From the sequence record PP400787: 64,000 nt of DNA. One strand, written 5' to 3'. A model generated the notes under the pieces. The model worked only from the letters and a program-made list of their open reading frames with translations, had not been told where the DNA came from and ran no database searches. Within the stretch, counting starts at the first letter, position 1, and every line of letters starts with the position of its first letter. Positions 17,014 through 64,000 of the stretch are shown here, one piece after another. Both the position numbers and the translations under genes were made by a program. Origin of the DNA: Escherichia phage FL23.

Positions 17014-17030
17014 AGATGCTCCTTTTATTC

Positions 17031-17042
17031 TATTTATAAATA
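17031..17042. promoter_or_regulatory. overlapping divergent late promoters for genes 51 (-) and 26 (+)
   Basis: TATTTATAAATA: TATAAATA on the plus strand at 17035-17042 and on the minus strand at 17031-17038, each followed by an AAGGAG SD and ATG. Confidence 0.65.
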
Positions 17043-17063
17043 TGATAAATAAAGGAGCTAAAT

Positions 17064-17690
17064 ATGTATGAATACAAATTTGATGTGAGAGTTGGTTCTA
17101 AAATAATCAATTGTCGCGCATTCACGCTTAAAGAATATCTAGAACTTATTACTGCCAAAAATAATGGTTCCGTAGAAGTAATTGTTAAAAAGCTAATCAA
17201 AGACTGCACAAATGCAAAAGATTTAAACCGTCAAGAATCAGAACTATTGTTAATTCATTTATGGGCACATTCTCTCGGTGAAGTTAATCACGAAAACTCC
17301 TGGAAGTGCACCTGTGGAACTGAAATACCAACCCATATAAATCTATTACATACACAAATAGATGCACCAGAAGACCTCTGGTATACACTAGGTGACATTA
17401 AAATTAAATTCCGATACCCTAAAATTTTTGATGATAAAAATATAGCCCACATGATAGTATCATGCATAGAAACGATTCATGCTAACGGGGAAAGCATTCC
17501 AGTTGAAGACTTAAATGAAAAAGAACTGGAAGATTTATACTCTATCATCACAGAGTCAGATATTGTAGCTATAAAAGATATGCTTTTAAAGCCTACTGTT
17601 TATTTGGCTGTTCCAATTAAGTGTCCAGAGTGTGGAAAAACTCACGCTCATGTAATAAGAGGACTCAAAGAATTCTTTGAGTTACTATAA
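17064..17690 (+). CDS. 26: baseplate hub subunit gp26
   Basis: 208 aa as in T4 gp26; divergent from gene 51 with late promoter; AAGGAG SD. Confidence 0.88.
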
Positions 17691-18088
17691 TGGCAAATAT
17701 TAATAAGCTTTATTCTGACATCGACCCAGAAATGAAAATGGACTGGGACAAAGACGTTTCCAGATCTCTTGGATTAAGGTCAATTAAAAATAGCCTTTTA
17801 GGAATTATTACAACCAGAAAAGGTTCAAGACCGTTTGACCCTGAATTTGGATGTGATTTATCAGATCAGCTTTTTGAAAATATGACTCCTCTTACTGCTG
17901 ATACGGTTGAGCGTAACATCGAAAGCGCAGTAAGAAACTATGAGCCACGTATTGATAAATTAGCAGTTAATGTAATACCGGTTTATGATGATTATACTCT
18001 GATAGTAGAAATACGCTTTTCGGTCATCGATAACCCCGATGATATTGAGCAGATAAAACTGCAATTGGCTTCCAGTAATAGGGTATAA
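17690..18088 (+). CDS. 25: baseplate wedge protein gp25 (LysM-like sheath initiator)
   Basis: 132 aa as in T4 gp25; TAATG coupling to gene 26. Confidence 0.9.
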   Translation: MANINKLYSDIDPEMKMDWDKDVSRSLGLRSIKNSLLGIITTRKGSRPFDPEFGCDLSDQLFENMTPLTADTVERNIESAVRNYEPRIDKLAVNVIPVYDDYTLIVEIRFSVIDNPDDIEQIKLQLASSNRV

Positions 18089-18114
18089 TGCTTCACGTTA
18101 AAACGTGGTATAAT
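18089..18114 (+). promoter_or_regulatory. MotA-dependent middle promoter for uvsY
   Basis: MotA box TGCTTCA (18089-18095), 13-nt spacer, -10 TATAAT (18109-18114). Confidence 0.55.
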
Positions 18115-27963: not shown

Positions 27964-28773
27964 TTAGAAACGAGATGCGACTTTCGCATATACACTTACA
28001 ATATCTTCTGCACCCTGTGCAGCTTTATCTTCTACAGCTTCAGTGACGAAATTCAGTCCGGCTGCTTCAGTATCAGGAGTATTTATACTCTCAGTAATAG
28101 TGCTTTCATCTTTATTAGATTTCTTCACCATTTCTACGATTGCACTCAATTTACTTGAGAATGCATCTGAATAATCCATACCTTCGACCAGAGCAGAGAC
28201 TTTTTCTTTTTGAGACTCAGTCAGATCTTTAGTACTTTCGCTCAATGCCACTTCACGCTGCACATAATTGATATATGCGTCACGCTTATTGAGTTCTTCG
28301 AACAGACGAGCTGATTCTTCTTTATGTTCTTGCAGCTCTTCTTCCATTTCAGCTACAACATCAACTGATTCTTCTGGAACAACAACGTTGTGTTCAATGA
28401 AGAGCTCTTTCAATCCACCAAGCATGGATTCAAACAGTTCGGCTTTGATACCTTTATCTACTGCTAATTTATTTTCAGTGAGCCATTCTTTTGCAAGATG
28501 GTCAAGGAATTTAGAAGCTTGCTCAGCGATTTTCTTCTCAGCTTTTTCTTCTGCTTCTTCTTTATTTTTTTCTACTTCTTCTTCTGCTTTTTCAGCAATT
28601 TTAGCGATATGAGATTCAGCTAATTTAACGGCGTGCTGCTTGACGGTAGCTTCGAATACAGTGCCGAAAGTTTCTTTTGCTTCCGGAGAAATATTAACTG
28701 ATTCGAAAATACTATCAAGAGCAACGGAAGCATCAATTTTCTGCGCTTCGGCAATCAGTTGTTCTTTAAGCAT
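27964..28773 (-). CDS. 22: prohead core scaffold protein gp22
   Basis: 269 aa; E/K-rich coiled-coil composition; late promoter at 28801-28808. Confidence 0.9.
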   Translation of the reverse strand: MLKEQLIAEAQKIDASVALDSIFESVNISPEAKETFGTVFEATVKQHAVKLAESHIAKIAEKAEEEVEKNKEEAEEKAEKKIAEQASKFLDHLAKEWLTENKLAVDKGIKAELFESMLGGLKELFIEHNVVVPEESVDVVAEMEEELQEHKEESARLFEELNKRDAYINYVQREVALSESTKDLTESQKEKVSALVEGMDYSDAFSSKLSAIVEMVKKSNKDESTITESINTPDTEAAGLNFVTEAVEDKAAQGAEDIVSVYAKVASRF

Positions 28774-28800: not shown

Positions 28801-28808
28801 TATTTATA
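28801..28808 (-). promoter_or_regulatory. late promoter (TATAAATA) for gene 22
   Basis: Plus-strand TATTTATA overlapping the gene 21 stop codon, 28 nt upstream of gene 22 ATG. Confidence 0.6.
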
Positions 28809-29442
28809 ACGCTTTTTTCATGGCCTCTGCGAGAGCCATATAGGCGTCATCGGCACTTGTATCGGCTTCCGCCGTCTGTGATTCGGTAATTTCCTTAGGA
28901 GTTACCCATGCATCTGGAGCACTTGGACCCCATACTGCATCAACACCTACAGTTAATTTGAATCCTTCGTTTACGATACGATAACCTTTATTTGTGTCAG
29001 TCAATGAACCTAATCCACGAGAAGAAACTCCTGGAATCCATCCGGCACGAATATTAGCTGCTAATTTATCTCCAGGACCATGGTCACCTTCAATAACACG
29101 AGCTCGTCCGTATACGTCATTTCCTTTCCACCACATATCTTCTATAATGATAGCGGCTTGCATCGGGTCAACATTAGCGCGTGGAGGATGATTTAATTCT
29201 CCGAGAGCTTGTTTAGTTAAAACTTGCTCATTAATATAGTCTTTTACCGCTTTTTCTAATATACGTTTTGGATAAAGACGTTTATTTCTATTGACGACTT
29301 CCGCTTGCATGAATATTCCTTCGATGTATAAACCAGGTTTTAAACCTAAGTCTTTTCCATCATGAGATTCAAGCATTGGTACGCCATCAATAATTTCGCC
29401 AGGTTGACCCCAAGTTTCAATTAGTAATTGGGGTTCATTCAT
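28804..29442 (-). CDS. 21: prohead core protease gp21
   Basis: 212 aa as in T4 gp21; synteny 21-22-23. Confidence 0.92.
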   Translation of the reverse strand: MNEPQLLIETWGQPGEIIDGVPMLESHDGKDLGLKPGLYIEGIFMQAEVVNRNKRLYPKRILEKAVKDYINEQVLTKQALGELNHPPRANVDPMQAAIIIEDMWWKGNDVYGRARVIEGDHGPGDKLAANIRAGWIPGVSSRGLGSLTDTNKGYRIVNEGFKLTVGVDAVWGPSAPDAWVTPKEITESQTAEADTSADDAYMALAEAMKKAL

Positions 29443-55411: not shown

Positions 55412-56238
55412 TGGCTATTTTTCAAATAATTAATGAAAGCACTCCCCAAGTTCCAAAGGTTAAGCAATCATTAAACGAAAAGAAATGGATTCAGATAGGT
55501 CTTGAATATAAAAAGGCCAAAGCAAAAGGAATGACAGGAAAGCAATTTGCTGAAGAAAGAGGAATCAAATACTCTACGTTTACTTCAGCAATGTCAAAAT
55601 ATGCTTCAGGAATTAAAACGGCTGAAAAGATTCAAAAGCTTGAATCAAAACCAATGAATAAACTCAATAAGCAAGAAAGACAACTGCTTATGATAAATTC
55701 ATTCAGACAAACATTGCGCGATAAAATTCGTAATGAAGGTGCAGCAATTAATAATAAAACCAGAAAATGGTTTGCTGAAACTATTAAGCAAGTAAAAGGA
55801 CATAAAGTTGTTCGCCCGCAACCGGGACGAATATATGCTTTTGCTTATGACGCTAAACACAAGGAAACTCTTCCTTACTGGGATAAATTTCCTTTGATAA
55901 TTTACCTTGGCTTAGGTAAGCATAACTTAATGTACGGATTAAACTTGCACTATATTCCACCTAAAGCTCGTCAGCAATTCCTAGAAGAGCTTTTAAAGCA
56001 ATATGCAAATACACCTACTATTACTAATAAAACGAAATTAAAAATTGATTGGAGTCAAGTGAAAGGATTTAGGGGTGCAGACCAAATGATTAAGGCATAT
56101 ATACCTGGTAATATTATGGGTAGCCTTGTTGAAATCGCCCCGAAAGACTGGGCGAACGTTGTGTTAATGCCACTCCAAAGCTTCTACTCAAAAGGAAAAC
56201 GTTTCTCTGCAAACAAAGTTTGGAGCAATGTACGATGA
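55411..56238 (+). CDS. 2: DNA end-protector protein gp2
   Basis: 275 aa; TAATG coupling with gene 4; synteny. Confidence 0.88.
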
Positions 56239-56893
56239 ATTATGAAAAAATTTATAATTCACTAATTGATAGGGCTCGCAATAGAGCCCTTACTGGATAT
56301 AAAGAAAGACATCATATTATTCCGAAATGTTTAGGCGGTAGTAATGATGCTTCTAACTTGGTTGATTTAACTCCAGAAGAGCATTATGTTGCACATCAGC
56401 TATTAGTAAAAATCACCCAAATTCTTTAAAATTATCTTATGCAGCCATAAAAATGACGGTTTCAACTAAATATGTTAGGAGAAATAATAAAGTTTATGGT
56501 TGGTTAAAAAGAAAACATGCAAATAATATTTCAAATACACAAACTGGACGAAAATATTATAATAATGGTAAAAGATGTATAAAATTGCATGATGGAGATA
56601 TAATTCCTGAGGGATTTATTTTAGGAAGAGGATGGAGTCCGACACAAGGAACAACTCATTCTAGAAAAAATGACACATTTAAAAACAAAAAGCTTCAATC
56701 TGCTTTAGCTAATAAACGGTGGGAAAAAGAAAAGAAAATAATGTTAGATAACTTTGGAGTTAACACTATTGATGAAGCAAAGAAAATTGTTCTTGATTTT
56801 AAATCAACTTGTCATCTAAGATATTGGCGAAAGCCAACTTTAGAAAAATTTCCATTTATGACTTCTGCTCGTTTAAGAAGTCTAATAAATTAA
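56235..56893 (+). pseudogene. HNH homing endonuclease gene split by a frameshift (N-terminal HNH ORF 56235-56429; C-terminal ORF 56453-56893, whose frame is open from 56366)
   Basis: N-terminal ORF has HNH motif HHIIPKCLGG...NLV.LTPEEHYVAH and ends after ...QLLVKITQIL; downstream frame continues ...KNHPNSLKL...NGKRCIKLHDGDIIPEGFILGRGW, a C-terminal motif shared with SegB/SegD. The frames meet at an A5 run (56408-56412). Confidence 0.6.
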
Positions 56894-56999
56894 TTCTATT
56901 ATCTTCCATTCTTTTCTGTTGTTTGTTCTAAATGGAATTGAATGGAAGGGACTTAGACCCATTATACCACCAACATTTATAAAGCATTATGAGGAATAT

Positions 57000-57530
57000 A
57001 TGTCGCAAGCACTGCAACAAATTTTTAACCAAGCAAATACAACTAACTTTGTAGTATCAATACCACATAGTAATACTACATCTGCTTTTACTTTAAATGC
57101 TCAGTCAGTTCCTATTCCAGGAATTAGAATACCTGTTACTGATACCGTGACTGGGCCGTTTGGACTGGGCCGAGCACAACGTCCAGGTGCTACATTTGAG
57201 TACGATCCACTCATCGTGAGATTTATAGTTGATGAAGAACTTAAGTCATGGATAGGAATGTATGAATGGATGCTAGGAACTAGCAACTATCTTACAGGTG
57301 AAAATACTGCCCAAAAAACAGGTCCTGAATACATTACGCTTTACATTTTAGATAATAGCAAAACTGAAATCGTGATGTCAATAAATTTTTATAAGCCTTG
57401 GGTTTCTGACCTGTCTGAAGTAGAATTTAGCTATACGGAAGATTCAGACCCGGCTTTAGTATGTACAGCAACGATTCCTTATACGTATTTTCAAGTAGAA
57501 AAAGATGGAAAAATTATAGCGGAAGTTTAA
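57000..57530 (+). CDS. 3: tail completion / sheath terminator protein gp3
   Basis: Track start 56919 is TTG; ATG at 57000 with GAGGAA SD gives 176 aa, the T4 gp3 length as I recall it. Confidence 0.85.
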   Translation: MSQALQQIFNQANTTNFVVSIPHSNTTSAFTLNAQSVPIPGIRIPVTDTVTGPFGLGRAQRPGATFEYDPLIVRFIVDEELKSWIGMYEWMLGTSNYLTGENTAQKTGPEYITLYILDNSKTEIVMSINFYKPWVSDLSEVEFSYTEDSDPALVCTATIPYTYFQVEKDGKIIAEV

Positions 57531-57554
57531 TGCTTCAGTTTCATGTGTTATAAT
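57531..57554 (+). promoter_or_regulatory. middle (MotA box) / early-type promoter for gene 1
   Basis: MotA box TGCTTCA (57531-57537), 11-nt spacer, extended -10 TGtTATAAT (57546-57554). Confidence 0.5.
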
Positions 57555-57579
57555 CTTAACTAAATTTGAGGAGAAACAT

Positions 57580-58304
57580 ATGAAACTAATCTTTTTAAGC
57601 GGTGTAAAGCGTAGTGGAAAAGATACTACTGCTGATTTTATCATGAGCAATTATTCTGCAGTTAAATACCAACTTGCTGGTCCTATTAAGGATGCATTGG
57701 CTTATGCATGGGGAGTATTTGCAGCAAATACCGACTATCCTTGCTTAACTCGTAAAGAGTTTGAAGGAATTGACTATGATCGTGAGACTAATTTAAATCT
57801 AACTAAATTAGAAGTAATCACGATTATGGAACAAGCATTTTGCTATCTTAATGGTAAAAGCCCAATTAAAGGTGTGTTTGTTTTTGATGACGAAGGACAA
57901 GAATCAGTTAATTCCGTAGCATTTAACAAGATTATTGACGTTATAAATAATATTGAAGATCAATGGTCAGTCCGTCGTCTGATGCAAGCCCTAGGTACGG
58001 ATTTGATTGTTAATAACTTCGACCGCATGTACTGGGTAAAATTATTTGCTTTAGATTATCTTGATAAATTTAACTCAGGTTATGATTATTATATCGTTCC
58101 TGATACTCGTCAAGATCATGAAATGGATGCGGCTAGGGCGATGGGTGCTACAGTAATTCATGTAGTTCGTCCTGGTCAAAAATCCAATGATACACATATT
58201 ACAGAAGCTGGATTGCCAATTCGTGATGGCGATTTAGTAATTACAAACGATGGTTCTCTTGAAGAACTTTTTTCTAAAATTAAAAATACACTAAAGGTAC
58301 TATA

Positions 58305-58305
<1 letters not shown>
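57580..58305 (+). CDS. 1: deoxynucleoside monophosphate kinase gp1
   Basis: 241 aa; P-loop GVKRSGKDT; matches T4 gp1 from memory; GAGGAG SD. Confidence 0.95.
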
Positions 58306-59002
<697 letters not shown>

Positions 59003-59014
59003 TTTCACAAAGTT

Positions 59015-59054
59015 GTTTACATACTGATGAGGTAGTGATACTATTACCTCATCA
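59015..59054 (+). promoter_or_regulatory. early promoter with stem-loop (PeSL-like), ip locus copy 1
   Basis: -35 GTTTAC (59015-59020); extended -10 TGaTACTAT in the loop of perfect 10-bp inverted repeat TGATGAGGTA (59025-59034) / TACCTCATCA (59045-59054). Confidence 0.6.
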
Positions 59055-59075
59055 AAATTAATTAGGAAAATAAAA

Positions 59076-59333
59076 ATGAAAACTTTCAAAGAGTTTGCTA
59101 CAAAAACTACTATCACTGAATCTTCCCACGGTATGGAAGTAAAGCTTGGAATGGCTTTAGCTGAAGCTGAGCGTCTTTTCTCTCGTATTAAAGAACTTGC
59201 TGCTGCGGTCGATCCTTCATCTTTTAAAGGAGACCAAACTAAAGTTAAAGCACTTTTAGCATTATGCTCCGATGCAGGAGAAATTGCTAAAAATGGCTCT
59301 AAGATGAAGAAACGATTAGAAGATTTAAAATAA
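59076..59333 (+). CDS. internal head protein with N-terminal capsid-targeting sequence (ip-locus gene)
   Basis: N-terminus MKTFKEFATKTTITE resembles the T4 internal-protein CTS (MKTYQEFIAE) with a candidate gp21 cleavage site I-T-E; own early promoter; AGGAAA SD. Confidence 0.7.
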   Translation: MKTFKEFATKTTITESSHGMEVKLGMALAEAERLFSRIKELAAAVDPSSFKGDQTKVKALLALCSDAGEIAKNGSKMKKRLEDLK

Positions 59334-59345
59334 TTTCACAAAGTT

Positions 59346-59383
59346 GTTTACATAGGGTTTTAGTTGTGATACTATTACCCTAT
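59346..59383 (+). promoter_or_regulatory. early promoter with stem-loop (PeSL-like), ip locus copy 2
   Basis: -35 GTTTAC (59346-59351); same GTGATACTAT -10 core; flanked by imperfect inverted repeat ATAGGGT/ACCCTAT. Confidence 0.55.
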
Positions 59384-59409
59384 CAAAACAAAACCAAATG
59401 GAAATCAAA

Positions 59410-59643
59410 ATGAAAACTTACCAAGAATTTATTGCTGAAACTGCTGATGTAAAAGTTGAGTTTATTTACACTGGCAAGAAAGATAAAATGGGTGAAATGC
59501 CTCATGGAGTTCTTCGTGATGCATTAGATAATTTCGGTCAACTCGCCGCAGAAGATTACGGTGATAAAATTGTTGTTACTGGTCCTGCTGCAGTTATTGA
59601 AAAATGGGCAGCAGAAAATAAATCAATTTTTCGTAAAAAATAA
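59410..59643 (+). CDS. internal head protein with canonical CTS (ip-locus gene)
   Basis: Begins exactly MKTYQEFIAE at the second in-frame ATG (track start 59398 adds MEIK); own early promoter. Confidence 0.7.
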   Translation: MKTYQEFIAETADVKVEFIYTGKKDKMGEMPHGVLRDALDNFGQLAAEDYGDKIVVTGPAAVIEKWAAENKSIFRKK

Positions 59644-59683
59644 GTTTACTTTTAGATAGGGTAGTGATACTATTACCCTATCT
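59644..59683 (+). promoter_or_regulatory. early promoter with stem-loop (PeSL-like), ip locus copy 3
   Basis: -35 GTTTAC (59644-59649); GTGATACTAT in the loop of perfect 10-bp inverted repeat AGATAGGGTA (59654-59663) / TACCCTATCT (59674-59683). Confidence 0.6.
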
Positions 59684-59701
59684 ACTACTGAGGAGAATAA
59701 A

Positions 59702-59887
59702 ATGAAACGTTGTGAATTAATTCGAAATGTTGCTATTGCAATTTCTGCTTCCGCTTTTAGTTTTTCAATGTTTGTTGGATTTATATGTGGATTATTGACT
59801 ACAGCAGAAAATGTGTTTTCACTTGTAGTAGCATTTTTAATTGGTTTAATTGCTATTGTTATGGATAAAATTTCTAAAGGTGAATAA
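59702..59887 (+). CDS. small hydrophobic membrane protein (61 aa)
   Basis: GAGGAGAATAAAATG strong SD; two predicted hydrophobic segments; own early promoter. Confidence 0.6.
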   Translation: MKRCELIRNVAIAISASAFSFSMFVGFICGLLTTAENVFSLVVAFLIGLIAIVMDKISKGE

Positions 59888-60285
59888 TGAACGTTGAATA
59901 TTATGTATATGCGGATTACGAAAATAATCCGTCTAAAGATGAAGATAATCGTTTAGGTGTAGATGCTTTCGATTCCCCTGCGGCGGCATGGCAATGGGTT
60001 GAAAGAACCGATATTCCTTACCGTTATATTGAAGTGGTTGACCACGCAGGAAACAAGTATCCTAAGGAAGCATATGTTGCTTCCGGGAAGGTAAATTTCC
60101 TTTTGTTTGCAGGTGATAATTATTATCCCCGTGGTGGGTATACCGATTTAATTGCTAAAGCATTCTCTGAAGATGAACTCCGTGACATTATCAAAGAAAA
60201 TGAAAACAAACCGATGGATTCTAATCGCTTTGATTGGTGGCAAATCGTAAATGCTAATACTCACACTATTGTTGATGAAGGCTGA
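59887..60285 (+). CDS. hypothetical protein
   Basis: TAATG coupling; 132 aa. Confidence 0.65.
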   Translation: MNVEYYVYADYENNPSKDEDNRLGVDAFDSPAAAWQWVERTDIPYRYIEVVDHAGNKYPKEAYVASGKVNFLLFAGDNYYPRGGYTDLIAKAFSEDELRDIIKENENKPMDSNRFDWWQIVNANTHTIVDEG

Positions 60286-60287
60286 TA

Positions 60288-60575
60288 ATGATTCTTTATG
60301 CGAAAGTATCATCCATTGAAAATGGATATAAATATGATCAAGACGCGGCTAAAGCTTTGATTGATGATTATGGCATTTTAACATGTTTTGAAGTTGAAAA
60401 GGTTTACATTGACCGTTCATCTTCTCAAGTTAAATTAGTGAAGGAAGAACGTAAATTTAATACAGTAAATTTTGATTTCTTTATTGAAACAGAAAAAGGT
60501 CCTCTTGAATATGATATTTTCAAGAATCCTTTGGGTCTTGAATGCATCGTAAATATGTATTATTATAAATGGTAA
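60288..60575 (+). CDS. hypothetical protein
   Basis: ATG 2 nt after previous stop; 95 aa; followed by middle-promoter cassette. Confidence 0.65.
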   Translation: MILYAKVSSIENGYKYDQDAAKALIDDYGILTCFEVEKVYIDRSSSQVKLVKEERKFNTVNFDFFIETEKGPLEYDIFKNPLGLECIVNMYYYKW

Positions 60576-60578
60576 ATA

Positions 60579-60603
60579 TGCTTTAAGAATTATTTGTTAT
60601 TAT
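60579..60603 (+). promoter_or_regulatory. MotA-dependent middle promoter upstream of the tRNA cluster (second copy of the gene 31 cassette)
   Basis: 22-nt string ATGCTTTAAGAATTATTTGTTA (60578-60599) identical to 1838-1859; MotA box TGCTTTA, 12-nt spacer, -10 TATTAT. Confidence 0.5.
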
Positions 60604-60672
60604 TAACTCATATCGCACTGATTAATACCCTCTATCATCAAGGGTTCTTGCTTAAGAGCCTTTGTTAATAAT

Positions 60673-60745
60673 TGGGAATTAGCCAAGTTGGTAAGGCACT
60701 GGATTTTGATTCCAGGATGCAAAGGTTCGAGTCCTTTATTCCCAG
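60673..60745 (+). tRNA. tRNA-Gln (anticodon UUG)
   Basis: Cloverleaf: acceptor TGGGAAT/ATTCCCA, anticodon loop TTTTGAT, T-arm GGTTCGAGTCC; CCA not encoded. Confidence 0.85.
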
Positions 60746-60746
60746 C

Positions 60747-60833
60747 GCGAGAATGGCCAAATTGGTAAAGGCACAGCACTTAAAATGCTGCGGAATGATT
60801 TCCTTGTGGGTTCGAGTCCCACTTCTCGTACCA
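60747..60833 (+). tRNA. tRNA-Leu (anticodon UAA), long variable arm
   Basis: Acceptor GCGAGAA/TTCTCGT, anticodon loop CTTAAAA, T-arm GGTTCGAGTCC, encoded CCA. Confidence 0.85.
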
Positions 60834-60839
60834 AAGTTT

Positions 60840-60911
<72 letters not shown>

Positions 60912-60923
60912 AAATTTAATTTA

Positions 60924-60997
60924 CTCCGTGTAGCTCAGTTTGGTAGAGCGCCTGATTTGGGATCAGGAGGTCCAAGGTTCAAATCCTTGTATGGAGA
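60924..60997 (+). tRNA. tRNA-Pro (anticodon UGG)
   Basis: D-arm TAGCTCAGTTTGGTAGAGC, anticodon loop TTTGGGA, T-arm GGTTCAAATCC. Confidence 0.8.
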
Positions 60998-60999
60998 TT

Positions 61000-61086
61000 G
61001 GAGGCGTGGCAGAGTGGTTTAATGCACCGGTCTTGAAAACCGGCAGTCGCTCCGGCGACTCATAGGTTCAAATCCTATCGCCTCCG
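61000..61086 (+). tRNA. tRNA-Ser (anticodon UGA), long variable arm
   Basis: Acceptor GGAGGCG/CGCCTCC, anticodon loop CTTGAAA, T-arm GGTTCAAATCC. Confidence 0.85.
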
Positions 61087-61093
61087 TAATTTC

Positions 61094-61166
61094 GCTGATT
61101 TAGCTCAGTAGGTAGAGCACCTCACTTGTAATGAGGACGTCGGCGGTTCGATTCCGTCAATCAGCA
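61094..61166 (+). tRNA. tRNA-Thr (anticodon UGU)
   Basis: Acceptor GCTGATT/AATCAGC, D-arm TAGCTCAGTAGGTAGAGC, anticodon loop CTTGTAA, T-arm GGTTCGATTCC. Confidence 0.85.
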
Positions 61167-61172
61167 TATCAA

Positions 61173-61244
61173 GGCCCTGTAGCTGGAAGGTTCAAGCAAG
61201 CGACTCATAATCGCCAGATGGTGGTTCAATTCCACCCAGGGCCA
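61173..61244 (+). tRNA. tRNA-Ile (anticodon CAU, presumed lysidine-modified; reads as Met by sequence alone)
   Basis: Acceptor GGCCCTG/CAGGGCC, anticodon loop CTCATAA, T-arm GGTTCAATTCC; T4 encodes a CAU tRNA-Ile at this position. Confidence 0.7.
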
Positions 61245-61285
61245 TATTTTGAGAACATAAATACTCTTAGAAATAGGAGATATTT

Positions 61286-61951
61286 ATGTTCCATTACATT
61301 TATAAAATAACAAATAAAATTAATAATAAAATCTATATAGGCGCTCATTCTACCGAAAATTTAGATGATGGATATATGGGTTCTGGTAAATTATTAAAAA
61401 GAGCCCAAGATAAGTATGGTATAGAAAATTTTTCTAAAGAAATATTAGAGTTCTTTGACGATAAAACCTCTATGTTTGAGTCAGAAAAGAATATTGTGAC
61501 TGAAGAGTTTTTAAAGCACCCTGATGTTTATAATTTGAAATTAGGTGGTGAAGGTGGTTGGGACCATTTAAACACTAAAGAATATTTGGATAAAAAGAAA
61601 GAAGCTTCCTTAAAAGGAGCTGCCGCTTTTAAAACCAGATTTGAGAACGACCCAGACCTTAAAGAAAAATATCGTAAAATGGGTTCAGAAAGGTTTAAAC
61701 AGCTTTGGGATAATCCTAAGTATAGAGAGAAATTTTTAAATACTAAATCTTTCTTGGGTAAGACCCATACTCCTGAAACTATTAATAAAATGAAAGAATC
61801 TCACGCTAAAAATAATCACCAGAAAGGTGAAAAGAATTCCCAATTTGGTATGATGTGGATTCATTCATTAGATGAAAAAGTTTCTAAACGTATTAAGAAA
61901 ACTGACCCAATTCCAGAAGGATGGTTTAAAGGTCGAAAAATGAAATTTTAA
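61286..61951 (+). CDS. segB: GIY-YIG homing endonuclease SegB
   Basis: N-terminal GIY-YIG module (KIYIGAHS...YMGSGK); 221 aa; inserted between tRNA-Ile and tRNA-Arg as in T4; AGGAGA SD. Confidence 0.85.
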   Translation: MFHYIYKITNKINNKIYIGAHSTENLDDGYMGSGKLLKRAQDKYGIENFSKEILEFFDDKTSMFESEKNIVTEEFLKHPDVYNLKLGGEGGWDHLNTKEYLDKKKEASLKGAAAFKTRFENDPDLKEKYRKMGSERFKQLWDNPKYREKFLNTKSFLGKTHTPETINKMKESHAKNNHQKGEKNSQFGMMWIHSLDEKVSKRIKKTDPIPEGWFKGRKMKF

Positions 61952-61954
61952 CTA

Positions 61955-62030
61955 CGAGGCATAGCTCAGAAGGAAGAGCAAGGACCTTCTAAGTCCTGGG
62001 TCGTAGGTTCGATCCCTACTGCCTCGACCA
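61955..62030 (+). tRNA. tRNA-Arg (anticodon UCU)
   Basis: Acceptor CGAGGCA/TGCCTCG, anticodon loop CTTCTAA, T-arm GGTTCGATCCC, encoded CCA; starts 4 nt after segB stop. Confidence 0.85.
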
Positions 62031-62035
62031 GACAA

Positions 62036-62376
62036 GAAGCCGGGTCGCTACCGGCAAGTCGTCGGACTGATGTTCCCTGTTTAAGGACTGGCATTAACAA
62101 ATCTTTACGATCTGCTAATGCCCCCTTATATCACAGCAGAAACGGCGCACCGAATTATCGATTCGAGGAAATATCTTTGCCATAAGCCGAGTAGCGTTTT
62201 TGACGGAACGTTCGGATATGGTCGAGATATGGCCTTTTAAAAATATTGAGTAGCGTCAACTGCTTAATAACCGGGTTCGAATCCCGGCGTTTCGTACAAA
62301 CACTTGCCTTAGCAGGTGGAACCCCGACAAGGTTGCCGCAAGGCTTAGCCCCGACCGAAAGGTTGGGGCTTTTTAG
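62036..62376 (+). ncRNA. small stable RNA region (T4 RNA C / RNA D-like), boundaries approximate
   Basis: No credible ATG ORF with SD; lies directly downstream of tRNA-Arg where T4 encodes two small stable RNAs; contains a tRNA-like T-arm (CCGGGTTCGAATCCCGG at about 62271-62287) and ends in a hairpin plus T-run terminator. Confidence 0.4.
62347..62376 (+). terminator. rho-independent terminator ending the stable RNA region
   Basis: CCCCGACC-GAAA-GGTTGGGG hairpin followed by CTTTTT. Confidence 0.65.
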
Positions 62377-62464
62377 TTTGAATCACTCGGATAACGCTGT
62401 TACGGATAGTAACAAAGTAATAAATAATTAATAACCAACCGATAAATTATTTCAAGGATTTTAA

Positions 62465-63028
62465 ATGAAAACCTATGCCGAATTTTTAACCGAAGCAGCA
62501 AAATTACCATCTGAAGCAGATCTTACTAAAGTATTCTTCCAATTGGACCCAAAAGACCGCGGCGATTTTCTTAAGTGGAAAGCTAAAGCTATTGAAATGT
62601 ACAACATCGATAATAGTTCTTTTACAATGAGTCAAGAAAATAAATTCAATAAAGCATTTTTCAAAATTTCTAAGAAATTGGCATCTGGCGCTCAGGTTCC
62701 TAAATCTGTGTTAGCTACTCCTGAACGCGCACCTGTTAAAATTTCTAAGAATATGTTCGACACTAAAAAATACGTTAATGCTTTGAATAAAGCTCTTGAT
62801 GCATTGGATGATGCAAAGAAGGCAGCCCGCGATCTTCAAGACGTGTACACCGATTTTGACCGCAAAACTAAAGGTTCTATTTCAAATAGCGAACGCAATA
62901 GTGTAAGTGTTTATTCTGATAGCCTTGATGTTCTTGGCGATGCGTATACTGAAATTAAAAATCGTATTAACACTGCATCTAAGCTAAAAGCTGCTGCAGA
63001 AGCTATAATAAGTAAACTAGGTAAATAA
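62465..63028 (+). CDS. internal head protein with CTS (IpIII-like)
   Basis: N-terminus MKTYAEFLTE matches the CTS consensus with L-T-E cleavage site; 187 aa; AAGGA SD; terminator follows. Confidence 0.7.
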   Translation: MKTYAEFLTEAAKLPSEADLTKVFFQLDPKDRGDFLKWKAKAIEMYNIDNSSFTMSQENKFNKAFFKISKKLASGAQVPKSVLATPERAPVKISKNMFDTKKYVNALNKALDALDDAKKAARDLQDVYTDFDRKTKGSISNSERNSVSVYSDSLDVLGDAYTEIKNRINTASKLKAAAEAIISKLGK

Positions 63029-63036
63029 TTTTAAAT

Positions 63037-63061
63037 CCCTATCTAAATGATAGGGCTTTTT
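63037..63061 (+). terminator. rho-independent terminator after the IpIII-like gene
   Basis: CCCTATC-TAAAT-GATAGGG hairpin followed by CTTTTT. Confidence 0.7.
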
Positions 63062-63184
63062 GGTATCTAGGCCTTTCTGGACCTCTCTAGGCATCATTTA
63101 GTTTATACCCTTTATAATATATTATCCTATCCTTTAATTGCCCATCCCTGCCCTAGAATTCCCTAAAAATTTTTTCACAAAACT

Positions 63185-63214
63185 GTTTACATCTCTGTTC
63201 TTCCATGGTACTAT
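63185..63214 (+). promoter_or_regulatory. early promoter
   Basis: -35 GTTTAC (63185-63190), 18-nt spacer, extended -10 TGgTACTAT (63206-63214). Confidence 0.55.
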
Positions 63215-63257
63215 ACAACTATCAACTACTGATACAGAAAACAACTTGGAGAATGAA

Positions 63258-63521
63258 ATGGATAATTACGGCGAACTGTTCAACTTCTTTATGAAATGCG
63301 TTTCAGAAGATTTCGGTCGTACAGTGAATGATATTAAAGTTATCGGTCCTGACCATCCGATGTTTGAAACTTACGCAGTAATGGGTAATGAAGACGGTCA
63401 GTGGTATACTGTAAAAGTTGTGATTAATATGTTCACAGCAGAAGGTTATGTTAAACTGTCTTCTAAAGTTTACCATGATAACGACGAAATCGCAGAAGAA
63501 TATTTCAATAATATGAAATAA
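63258..63521 (+). CDS. hypothetical protein
   Basis: Track start 63138 is TTG and would run through the promoter; ATG at 63258 with GGAGA SD gives 87 aa. Confidence 0.6.
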   Translation: MDNYGELFNFFMKCVSEDFGRTVNDIKVIGPDHPMFETYAVMGNEDGQWYTVKVVINMFTAEGYVKLSSKVYHDNDEIAEEYFNNMK

Positions 63522-63622
63522 GTTTACGCAGGCTCATGATTGAGATATTATGAGCCTATAATTTGACGATAGAGTATTATACTCCTACGGATTTTAAATC
63601 TCAATTAACCTAAGGAAATACT

Positions 63623-64000
63623 ATGAACACACTGAAGAAAATTGTTGAGTTTATTCGCACTAAACTTGGTTCTGCTATGGCTAAAAATCTATCTGTCGAA
63701 GAACAGTATACTGCTGCAGCAGCAAAACTACTTGATAAAATTAAAGATCTAAAAACTGCTTCTGTTAAATCTATTAACGAAGAAAAACGTATTCGTGAAC
63801 TTGTTATCGAAAAGAATCGACAGGCCGAATCAAAAGAGCGTGAAATTCGTAAACTTCTTTCCGAAGGCCAAGATGTAACAATGCATGCTAAACTCGGTTT
63901 ACTATATCGTCGAACAGCTGAGCAGTTGACTACTAAGGCTGACGGTTATGCTGAAATGCGAATTGAAATCGCCAAGAAAGTAGTTGAGTTAGATGATGCT
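63623..64000 (+). CDS. coiled-coil protein, 3'-truncated by window edge (possibly PspA/IM30-like)
   Basis: AAGGAAA SD, ATG 63623; heptad-rich K/E/R sequence; family assignment is tentative pattern resemblance only. Confidence 0.55.

Follow-up and report, generated by a model that had tools for sequence, protein, structure and literature searches.

ip5 and ip6 of a T6-like Tequatrovirus: probable independent cargo cassettes of the hypervariable ipI locus

The genes ip5 and ip6 lie side by side in the window, the whole 64-kb stretch of DNA analyzed here, and are probably two independent cargo cassettes of the hypervariable ipI locus of a T6-like Tequatrovirus. Bases 56000-64000 of the window match Escherichia phage FL44 (PP400790.1) at 100% identity; this Tequatrovirus came from pig feces, with E. 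coli K-12 as the isolation host. The products of the two genes are most likely packaged, processed, and injected proteins that bind a host defense protein without enzymatic action. The locus is a textbook T6-type ip locus, named in public records, and by their sequences the genes are not new, having already been named as the Ip5 and Ip6 of T6 and its relatives. What we add is a wider Ip6 family with a fold model, a helical hairpin model of the orphan Ip5, the selection acting on both genes, and the independent shuffling of their cassettes. Injected internal proteins work ahead of any phage gene expression, and few cargos at the ip locus are commoner than Ip5 and Ip6, which are present in ~270 and ~230 deposited genomes, including those of T2 and T6. 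Their targets, if found, would widen the map of phage counterdefense and improve host-range prediction for therapeutic T-even phages. The window itself holds nothing new on ip5 and ip6; its value lies in clear annotation and in T6 as a ready genetic system.

On the plus strand, the genes around ip5 and ip6 are arranged as on the T4 chromosome, but in reverse. The features on which the analysis draws are as follows:

57580-58305, plus strand: gene 1 (dNMP kinase)
58305-58547, plus strand: gene 57A
58544-59002, plus strand: gene 57B, the Acb1 anti-CBASS nuclease (Pfam PF23474, 2.7e-60), conserved left flank of the ip locus
59076-59333, plus strand: ip5, 85 aa (PHROG 3499, "internal head protein," 1.2e-49)
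59076-59120, plus strand: ip5 leader, codons 1-15, MKTFKEFATKTTITE
59121-59330, plus strand: predicted mature Ip5 cargo, 70 aa, 7.5 kDa, pI 9.2
59410-59643, plus strand: ip6, 77 aa
59410-59439, plus strand: ip6 leader, codons 1-10, MKTYQEFIAE
59440-59640, plus strand: predicted mature Ip6 cargo, 67 aa, 7.4 kDa, pI 6.5
Downstream of ip6, plus strand, in order: trna.4, trna.3, trna.2, eight tRNA genes, a 187-aa ORF, and e.8
61286-61951: SegB-like GIY-YIG endonuclease, splitting the cluster of eight tRNA genes
62465-63028, plus strand: the 187-aa ORF, beginning MKTYAEFLTE-AAKL, with the hyphen at the predicted cut (PHROG 2280, unknown function)
27964-28773, minus strand: gene 22, scaffolding core protein (Pfam PF25623, T4_CASP, 1.3e-89)
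28804-29442, minus strand: gene 21, prohead serine protease (Pfam PF03420, Peptidase_S77, 1.5e-111)

The 57B/Acb1 gene that adjoins ip5 is itself an anti-defense gene. The two adjacent ORFs of 85 and 77 aa described in the initial annotation are indeed present on the plus strand, and its assignment of them to the hypervariable T-even ip locus holds, as the two small leader-bearing genes fill the slot between 57B and trna.4 that ipI occupies in T4. An alternative ATG at 59398, the start chosen in the FL44 record, would extend Ip6 to 81 aa; we consider 59410 the better start because the homologs begin with MK(T/M)YQEF, the residues upstream of it are unconserved, and a GGA precedes it by 6 nt.

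Over their full lengths, Ip5 and Ip6 are 100% and 99% identical, respectively, to the proteins of T6, which shares the order 57B-Ip5-Ip6-trna.4 and whose record remarks that "Ip5 ... replaces ipI." RB70 and T2 are the source of the name Ip5, the protein is found in RB32 too, and Ip6 is the ipVI of Yersinia phage PST. The prospect raised earlier that these might be already characterized Ip proteins is thus half realized, in that the identity to T6 proteins is near complete and names exist, but the named genes are functionally uncharacterized. The 711-bp locus matches those of Elenatom, fFiEco06, fHoEco02, and FL44 at 100% identity and those of 77 records at 99% or more, and 158 records cover 80% of it or more; both genes together are present in a minimum of 158 deposited phage genomes. 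In tblastn searches, 268 records had the Ip5 cargo with an identity of at least 90%, and 226 others had a paralog of it (52 to 54% identity), RB69ORF127c directly after the lysozyme gene e being one example; the Ip6 cargo turned up in 230 records.

To survey the locus, 36 related loci were retrieved via the 57B/Acb1 gene and scanned downstream for leader-bearing ORFs, which gave 63 proteins. With FL44 and T4 included, the set comprises 72 leader-bearing proteins that, once the leader is removed, separate into 21 unrelated cargo families. Comparison of 13 cargo families by hhalign revealed no relationship between any pair, with a top probability of 28.6% (a 74-aa family versus an 88-aa family). 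To judge by these comparisons, the ip locus really is an assortment of mutually unrelated cargos behind a shared address tag. A common origin of the small Ip cargos, considered for Ip6 and the 74-aa family, was rejected, as that pair fell outside the top hhalign pairs. Ip5 and Ip6 are neighbors in FL44, T6, one further locus, and, with an Ip6-like protein, Gaprivervirus ECML-359, and T2 has Ip5 next to Ip7. Ip6 stands alone in one locus, and in three others, it lies downstream of a 90-aa Ip whose family corresponds to the annotated ip9 of ECML-359. An obligate ip5/ip6 pair was accordingly rejected, given the ip5-ip7 arrangement of T2 and the occurrence of ip6 without ip5 in some genomes: the two cassettes shuffle independently, if often as neighbors. 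T4 has neither gene, and the content of the locus varies even among very close relatives.

What these cargos share is the leader. A six-frame scan of the 64 kb with the pattern MK[TS][YFW]x[ED][FYL] gives three matches, all of them at the starts of ip5, ip6, and the 187-aa ORF, against a mean of 0.01 to 0.06 matches (maximum 1) in shuffled sequences. An aromatic residue 4 and Phe 7 are found in Ip5 (MKTFKEF), Ip6 (MKTYQEF), and the 187-aa protein (MKTYAEF), and each leader ends in an L/I-X-E motif, namely, ITE at residues 13 to 15, IAE at 8 to 10, and LTE at 8 to 10, respectively. In T4, capsid targeting depends on leader residues 4 and 7 and processing on residues 8 and 10, and gp21 cleaves after L/I-X-E to release propeptides of 10 to 19 residues (PMC9026906). 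The genes for the cognate gp21 protease and gp22 scaffold both lie within the window. The candidate gp21 site that the initial annotation placed behind each leader is therefore there in both proteins; of its leader pattern, MKT(Y/F)xEFxxE, Ip6 is a full match, and Ip5 departs from it at residue 10, which is K, not E. The Ip6 leader is letter identical to that of T4 IPII and IPIII, and that of Ip5, MKTFKEFATKTTITE, is of the T4 IPI type, shortened relative to the 19-residue T4 IPI leader, MKTFKEFTSTTTPVSTITE.

The ECML-359 copy of Ip5 has a leader of 10 aa (MKTYQTFITE), compared with 15 aa in FL44, and in both, the cargo starts with SSHG. The retention of this start behind leaders of two lengths suggests that the ITE-S junction is the processing and functional boundary of Ip5, and it is good indirect evidence for a processing site there. 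Further L/I-X-E motifs within the first helix of Ip5 (LAE, residues 28 to 30, and IKE, residues 38 to 40) leave its true mature end uncertain. Judged from these leader and cleavage motifs, Ip5 and Ip6 are very probably packaged and processed internal proteins.

Each gene is preceded by a copy of a 71-nt unit (repeat family D1) with starts at 58987, 59318, and 59616. All three copies are built alike, from the final codons of the gene before, a TG-extended promoter, TTTAC(A/T)-17-TACTAT, and a hairpin whose upper stem and loop hold the -10 hexamer:

58987-59057, plus strand: cassette 1, last codons of 57B and promoter, ahead of ip5
59016-59021 and 59039-59044, plus strand: cassette 1 promoter, -35 TTTACA and -10 TACTAT, with TG extension
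59025-59054: cassette 1 hairpin, -17.4 kcal/mol, z -5.3, with the -10 in its upper stem/loop
59318-59388, plus strand: cassette 2, last codons of ip5, ahead of ip6, 86% identity to copy 1
59347-59375, plus strand: cassette 2 promoter, TTTACA-17-TACTAT, with TG extension
59352-59383: cassette 2 hairpin, -13.7 kcal/mol, z -3.9
59616-59686, plus strand: cassette 3, end of ip6, ahead of trna.4, closing the ip locus, 63% identity
59645-59650 and 59668-59673, plus strand: cassette 3 promoter, TTTACT and TACTAT, spacer 17
59653-59684: cassette 3 hairpin, -18.5 kcal/mol, z -4.8

Between copies 1 and 3, the hairpin stems have changed on both sides in ways that keep the pairing. These units are recognizable as the promoter/stem-loop (PeSL) cassettes of T4-type phages (Arbiol 2010; Comeau 2014), which have been proposed as mediators of modular gene shuffling (PMC4122927): an early promoter of the lineage consensus, which in T4/PST is TTTACW-N17-TAYWAT (PMC4122927) and which TTTACA-N17-TACTAT fits, overlaps a stable stem-loop, and the three copies are repeated at the borders of the variable ORFs. 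They are unlike PeSLs in having the -10 inside the hairpin and no U-tract after it, and for these two reasons, a terminator role is not evident. A generic promoter scan of the sequence was not enriched (18 sites versus 15.5 expected from shuffles); the case for promoters draws instead on the repeated cassette, the match to the T4/PST consensus, and the identity of the 57B-ip5 intergenic DNA of FL44 to the 57B-ipI intergenic DNA of T4. The claim that each gene has its own early promoter agrees with this, since an early-type motif stands in a cassette ahead of ip5 and of ip6; we infer that these motifs are active. The intergenic identity to T4 reaches into the start of the leader, which places the exchange junction within leader-coding DNA, and this DNA is itself repeated (37 to 44 nt, families D2 and D4, 70 to 76% identical). 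Neither a late promoter, TATAAATA with up to one mismatch, nor a MotA box was found within 58400-60300, so that transcription while the prohead assembles would depend on read-through; the closest TATAAATA late motif upstream lies within gene 1, at 57942-57949.

The cargos themselves are distinct from each other in composition, fold, and phyletic spread. The predicted mature Ip5 is Lys rich and basic, as are T4 IPI*, IPII*, and IPIII*. An exhaustive HMMER search with its cargo against 1.84 billion representatives retrieved only itself and one paralog cluster, so that at the sequence level, Ip5 is an orphan with one paralog family; FL44 also encodes this paralog (93 aa, 48% identity), past the end of the 64-kb window. 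An AF2 model from four sequences predicts, with a moderate pLDDT of 71.8, a hairpin of two helices (residues 17 to 44 and 54 to 84), for which no significant structural neighbors were found. Between the ip5 cargo and its Gaprivervirus ECML-359 copy, dN is 0.08 and dS, at 2.35, is saturated (dN/dS 0.03), and the proteins remain 90% identical despite this saturated synonymous divergence.

The predicted mature Ip6, in contrast to the basic T4 Ips, is neutral (pI 6.5, no net charge). It is a member of the largest cargo family (14 of the 72 proteins, 68 to 78 aa), to which a profile search adds proteins from Kagamiyamavirus (EcS1), Moonvirus (Merlin), and Koserivirus (CkP1), and Gaprivervirus ECML-359 encodes an unannotated 84-aa homolog with 47% identity. 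As far as these sequence matches go, the family covers at least five Tevenvirinae genera (Tequatrovirus, Gaprivervirus, Kagamiyamavirus, Moonvirus, and Koserivirus). Outside the leader, G58, P59, and I63 are invariant in the family and W66 is almost so. A model based on a 19-sequence alignment predicts a ferredoxin-like beta-alpha-beta-beta-alpha-beta fold (pLDDT 87.5, pTM 0.72). Against the VR20-type allele, ip6 has a dN/dS of 0.13 to 0.16, for comparison with 0.07 to 0.08 for 57B. Both ip5 and ip6 are constrained coding genes under purifying selection; they are not decaying and, gene-wide, are not diversifying.

No residues suggestive of catalysis are conserved in either family. Searches of Pfam, NCBIfam, and PADLOC gave no match under the curated cutoffs for Ip5, Ip6, or the 187-aa protein; PHROGs returned self-families only, and the best match by sequence to a solved structure in the PDB had an E value of 0.07. 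No likeness of Ip5 or Ip6 to a known anti-defense protein was found in structure or sequence.

The 187-aa protein was described earlier as IpIII-like, a label that suits its leader, size, and charge (predicted mature form of 19.6 kDa and pI 9.5, against 20.4 kDa and pI 9.65 for T4 IpIII) and fails for its cargo: the 12-residue leader aligns with T4 IpIII (E 0.005), and the other short segments have E values of 3.9 or higher. It was a singleton in the cargo clustering, and kinship to a 154-aa Ip family that other phages carry at a comparable distance downstream of 57B was rejected, as no relation was found. Its ORF lies between an rnaC-like terminator (62347-62370) and e.8; no promoter was recognized ahead of the gene, and upstream of the ORF, AATAAATA at 62419-62426 is a late-promoter motif with one mismatch. 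The protein occurs in 164 phage records, and all 30 of the matches listed are named "hypothetical protein." On the strength of its leader, it is a credible candidate for an unrecognized internal protein at a third genomic site.

On the basis of T4 precedent, a course of action for Ip5 and Ip6 can be conceived. Each gene would be transcribed from its own early sigma-70-type promoter in its promoter/stem-loop cassette, and late transcripts would probably arise by read-through from the TATAAATA motif within gene 1. The leader, through its aromatic residue 4 and Phe 7, would recruit the proteins to the gp22 prohead core, as T4 IPIII genetics suggests, and gp21 would cut after ITE15 of Ip5 and IAE10 of Ip6 to leave compact mature proteins of ~7.5 kDa in the head, perhaps in a few hundred copies per head by analogy with T4, whose Ips number 360 to 370 copies (PMC9026906). 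Ejected into the cell along with the DNA, they might bind and block, in a stoichiometric manner, a host defense protein that would attack the incoming modified DNA. Stoichiometric, non-enzymatic action is most likely because neither family retains catalytic-type residues. An anti-defense role is most likely in light of the T4 precedent, the swappable locus, the lack of catalytic signatures, and the adjoining 57B/Acb1, and we rate the reading of Ip5 and Ip6 as injected anti-defense binders as slightly better than even. In line with the initial annotation, which assigned no activity to the cargos, the searchable literature yielded neither virion proteomics nor N-terminal or functional data on Ip5 or Ip6, and no paper pairing Ip5 with GmrSD or the phrase "internal head protein."

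If Ip1, Ip2, and Ip3 are a guide, the leading candidate for the target would be a subtype of the GmrSD type IV restriction family outside the panel assayed so far. Each of these three T4 proteins blocks one distinct GmrSD-family type IV enzyme, with no cross-protection (Silas et al. 2025, PMC12373910). In the same study, ip4 to ip10 gave no reproducible inhibition of GmrSD variants (PMC12373910, Supplementary Fig. 9), and T6 (Ip5 and Ip6) and T2 (Ip5 and Ip7) were restricted by the GmrSD enzymes of ECOR17 and ECOR21, which are therefore not the targets of Ip5 and Ip6. The target is thus not among the GmrSD variants assayed so far, a panel of only 8 active systems from a very diverse family, and we regard a GmrSD-family enzyme as a tentative, rather unlikely identification. 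The suggestion made earlier that the cargo may be directed at a different host defense is consistent with these published negatives.

In the strongest of the rival explanations, Ip5 and Ip6 would be injected inhibitors of a defense other than GmrSD, such as another family of modification-dependent nucleases or an abortive-infection sensor acting at DNA entry. Besides the negative panel for ip4 to ip10 and the continued restriction of T6 by the assayed systems, the breadth of Ip6 over five genera and the very strong purifying selection on Ip5 point to a target that is conserved rather than hyperdiverse, and the neighboring gene encodes the anti-CBASS nuclease Acb1. The spread of Ip6 over at least five genera, the 90% identity of Ip5, the ip5/ip6-like adjacency in Gaprivervirus, and the negative GmrSD panel together underlie the form of this reading in which both, once injected, bind a host factor or defense that is distinct from GmrSD and better conserved, and are not further GmrSD inhibitors; the selection on Ip5 and the genus spread of Ip6 fit better with a conserved target than with a fast strain-specific arms race. 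Against it stand the precedent that all three T4 Ips with known targets act on GmrSD-family enzymes, the 8 active systems to which the assay was confined, and the absence of structural or sequence similarity to known anti-defense proteins. We hold this explanation to be doubtful in either form; on the published negatives and the conservation pattern, a target outside GmrSD and a GmrSD enzyme still to be assayed are about equally plausible.

It is improbable that Ip5 and Ip6 are mainly structural passengers, serving DNA charge neutralization, core assembly, or ejection without a specific host target. Mature Ip5 is indeed basic and Lys rich (pI 9.2), like the T4 IPI*, IPII*, and IPIII*, lysines of T4 internal proteins touch DNA phosphates, and there are IPIII mutants with head assembly defects (PMC3012670, PMC9026906); in addition, the published assay (PMC12373910) pointed to no target. 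Yet mature Ip6 has no net charge, close relatives differ in the content of the locus, and T4 lacks both genes. One leader on 21 unrelated cargo families is also hard to fit to a generic role, and the T4 Ips, formerly considered structural, proved to be specific inhibitors. More improbable still is the reading of the two as unpackaged early cytoplasmic proteins with a leader left over from recombination and carried along by the promoter cassette. In its favor, only early-type promoters are recognizable ahead of the genes, neither late nor middle promoters having been found within 58400-60300, and the swap junction falls inside leader-coding DNA that is itself repeated. Against it, residues 4, 7, 8, and 10 are kept at the protein level across unrelated cargos though the leader DNA is only 70 to 76% identical, the cargo boundary after L/I-X-E is kept across leaders of different lengths, and the late-promoter motif at 57942-57949 upstream could give late transcripts.

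The closest known systems, besides the Ip5 and Ip6 of T6, include the T4 internal proteins. T4 Ip2 and Ip3, inhibitors of the ECOR21 and ECOR17 GmrSD enzymes, respectively, have the exact 10-residue leader found in Ip6 and the route of packaging, processing, and injection predicted for both proteins. Their cargos are unrelated to those of Ip5 and Ip6, their genes lie at another T4 locus, downstream of the lysozyme gene e, and the enzymes that they target both restrict T6, which carries Ip5 and Ip6. T4 IPI* (Ip1), the inhibitor of the GmrS/GmrD of E. coli CT596, shares with the present locus its genomic slot and identical upstream promoter DNA; with Ip5, it further shares a long IPI-type leader, which in Ip5 ends in ITE, a similarly basic character, and a comparable mature size (8.0 kDa versus 7.5 kDa). 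Alignment with T4 IPI, IPII, and IPIII, which the initial annotation put forward as a check, showed both cargos to be unrelated to them, the likeness being limited to the leader. For IPI*, the BLASTP similarity is restricted to the leader, and hhalign gave a probability of 0.4% for the Ip5 cargo against the IPI* cargo and placed Ip6 below the 20 best pairs. IPI* is described as having two beta-sheets flanked by terminal helices, unlike Ip5, modeled as all helical, and Ip6, modeled as ferredoxin-like, and unlike IPI*, ip5 and ip6 had no reproducible anti-GmrSD activity in the published assay (PMC12373910). With T6, there is no difference of substance: FL44 carries the T6-type cassette pair.

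The leader-bearing repertoire extends beyond Ip5 and Ip6, the internal proteins of the ip locus. The initial annotation had described a third capsid-targeted protein of 187 aa as IpIII-like; its leader, the N-terminal capsid-targeting sequence, is borne out, but the protein is unrelated to T4 IpIII.

62465-63028, + strand: ORF of 187 aa opening with a perfect capsid-targeting leader (MKTYAEFLTE|AA)

This ORF, flanked by an rnaC-like terminator on one side and e.8 on the other, is carried by 164 phage genomes and is labeled "hypothetical protein" in all 30 of the records listed (e.g., RB14ncORF136c). Its product may be an unrecognized internal protein encoded at a third locus. Further leader-bearing genes are found in phage FL44 and in ECML-359, a Gaprivervirus.

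FL44 locus (L003), 17017-18092: three additional leader-bearing genes downstream of lysozyme e, about 3 kb past the window end
ECML-359 ip locus (L042), 826-1125 and 1470-1724: two leader-bearing ORFs absent from the record's annotation

One of the FL44 genes codes for a 93-aa Ip5 paralog (48% identity) and another for a 61-aa protein starting with MKMYQEFIVE; the third product is closely homologous to T4 Ip2. The phage therefore has a total of at least six leader-bearing proteins. In ECML-359, one of the ORFs codes for a 99-aa protein, and the other, immediately after ip5, codes for an 84-aa homolog of the Ip6 family (47% identity).

Ip5 contains a further motif that obeys the L/I-X-E cleavage rule of the prohead protease gp21.

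59157-59168: LAEA, Ip5 residues 28-31, within predicted helix 1

This L-(A/V)-E-A motif is kept in the Ip5 paralog (as LVEA) and in the Gaprivervirus copy, and it could constitute a second processing site.

The promoters belonging to ip5 and ip6 themselves are only of the early type, and the closest candidate source of late transcripts upstream of them lies within gene 1.

57942-57949, + strand: exact T4 late-promoter motif TATAAATA
58544-59002, + strand: gene 57B, matching the Pfam Acb1 anti-CBASS family (2.7e-60)

Late transcripts initiated at the gene 1 motif could extend by read-through of 57A and 57B as far as ip5 and ip6. The FL44 record labels 57B "hypothetical protein," and RefSeq records give it as "RNA ligase." Its match to the Acb1 family indicates that a known anti-defense gene adjoins the ip locus.

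The surrounding region can be compared with that of T4 at three places.

62118-62240 and 62246-62431, + strand: two small CDS present in the FL44 annotation
61286-61951, + strand: SegB-like GIY-YIG homing endonuclease
about 56235-56893, + strand: pair of short ORFs labeled "homing endonuclease," located between genes 2 and 3

The two small CDS occupy the position of the stable RNAs rnaD and rnaC of T4, and a strong terminator hairpin (62347-62370) closes this region; the CDS are probably spurious calls on top of RNA genes. The SegB-like endonuclease splits the tRNA cluster, as in T4. The interval between genes 2 and 3 lacks homing endonuclease ORFs in T4, and the two short ones present here may represent a split or decayed endonuclease gene.
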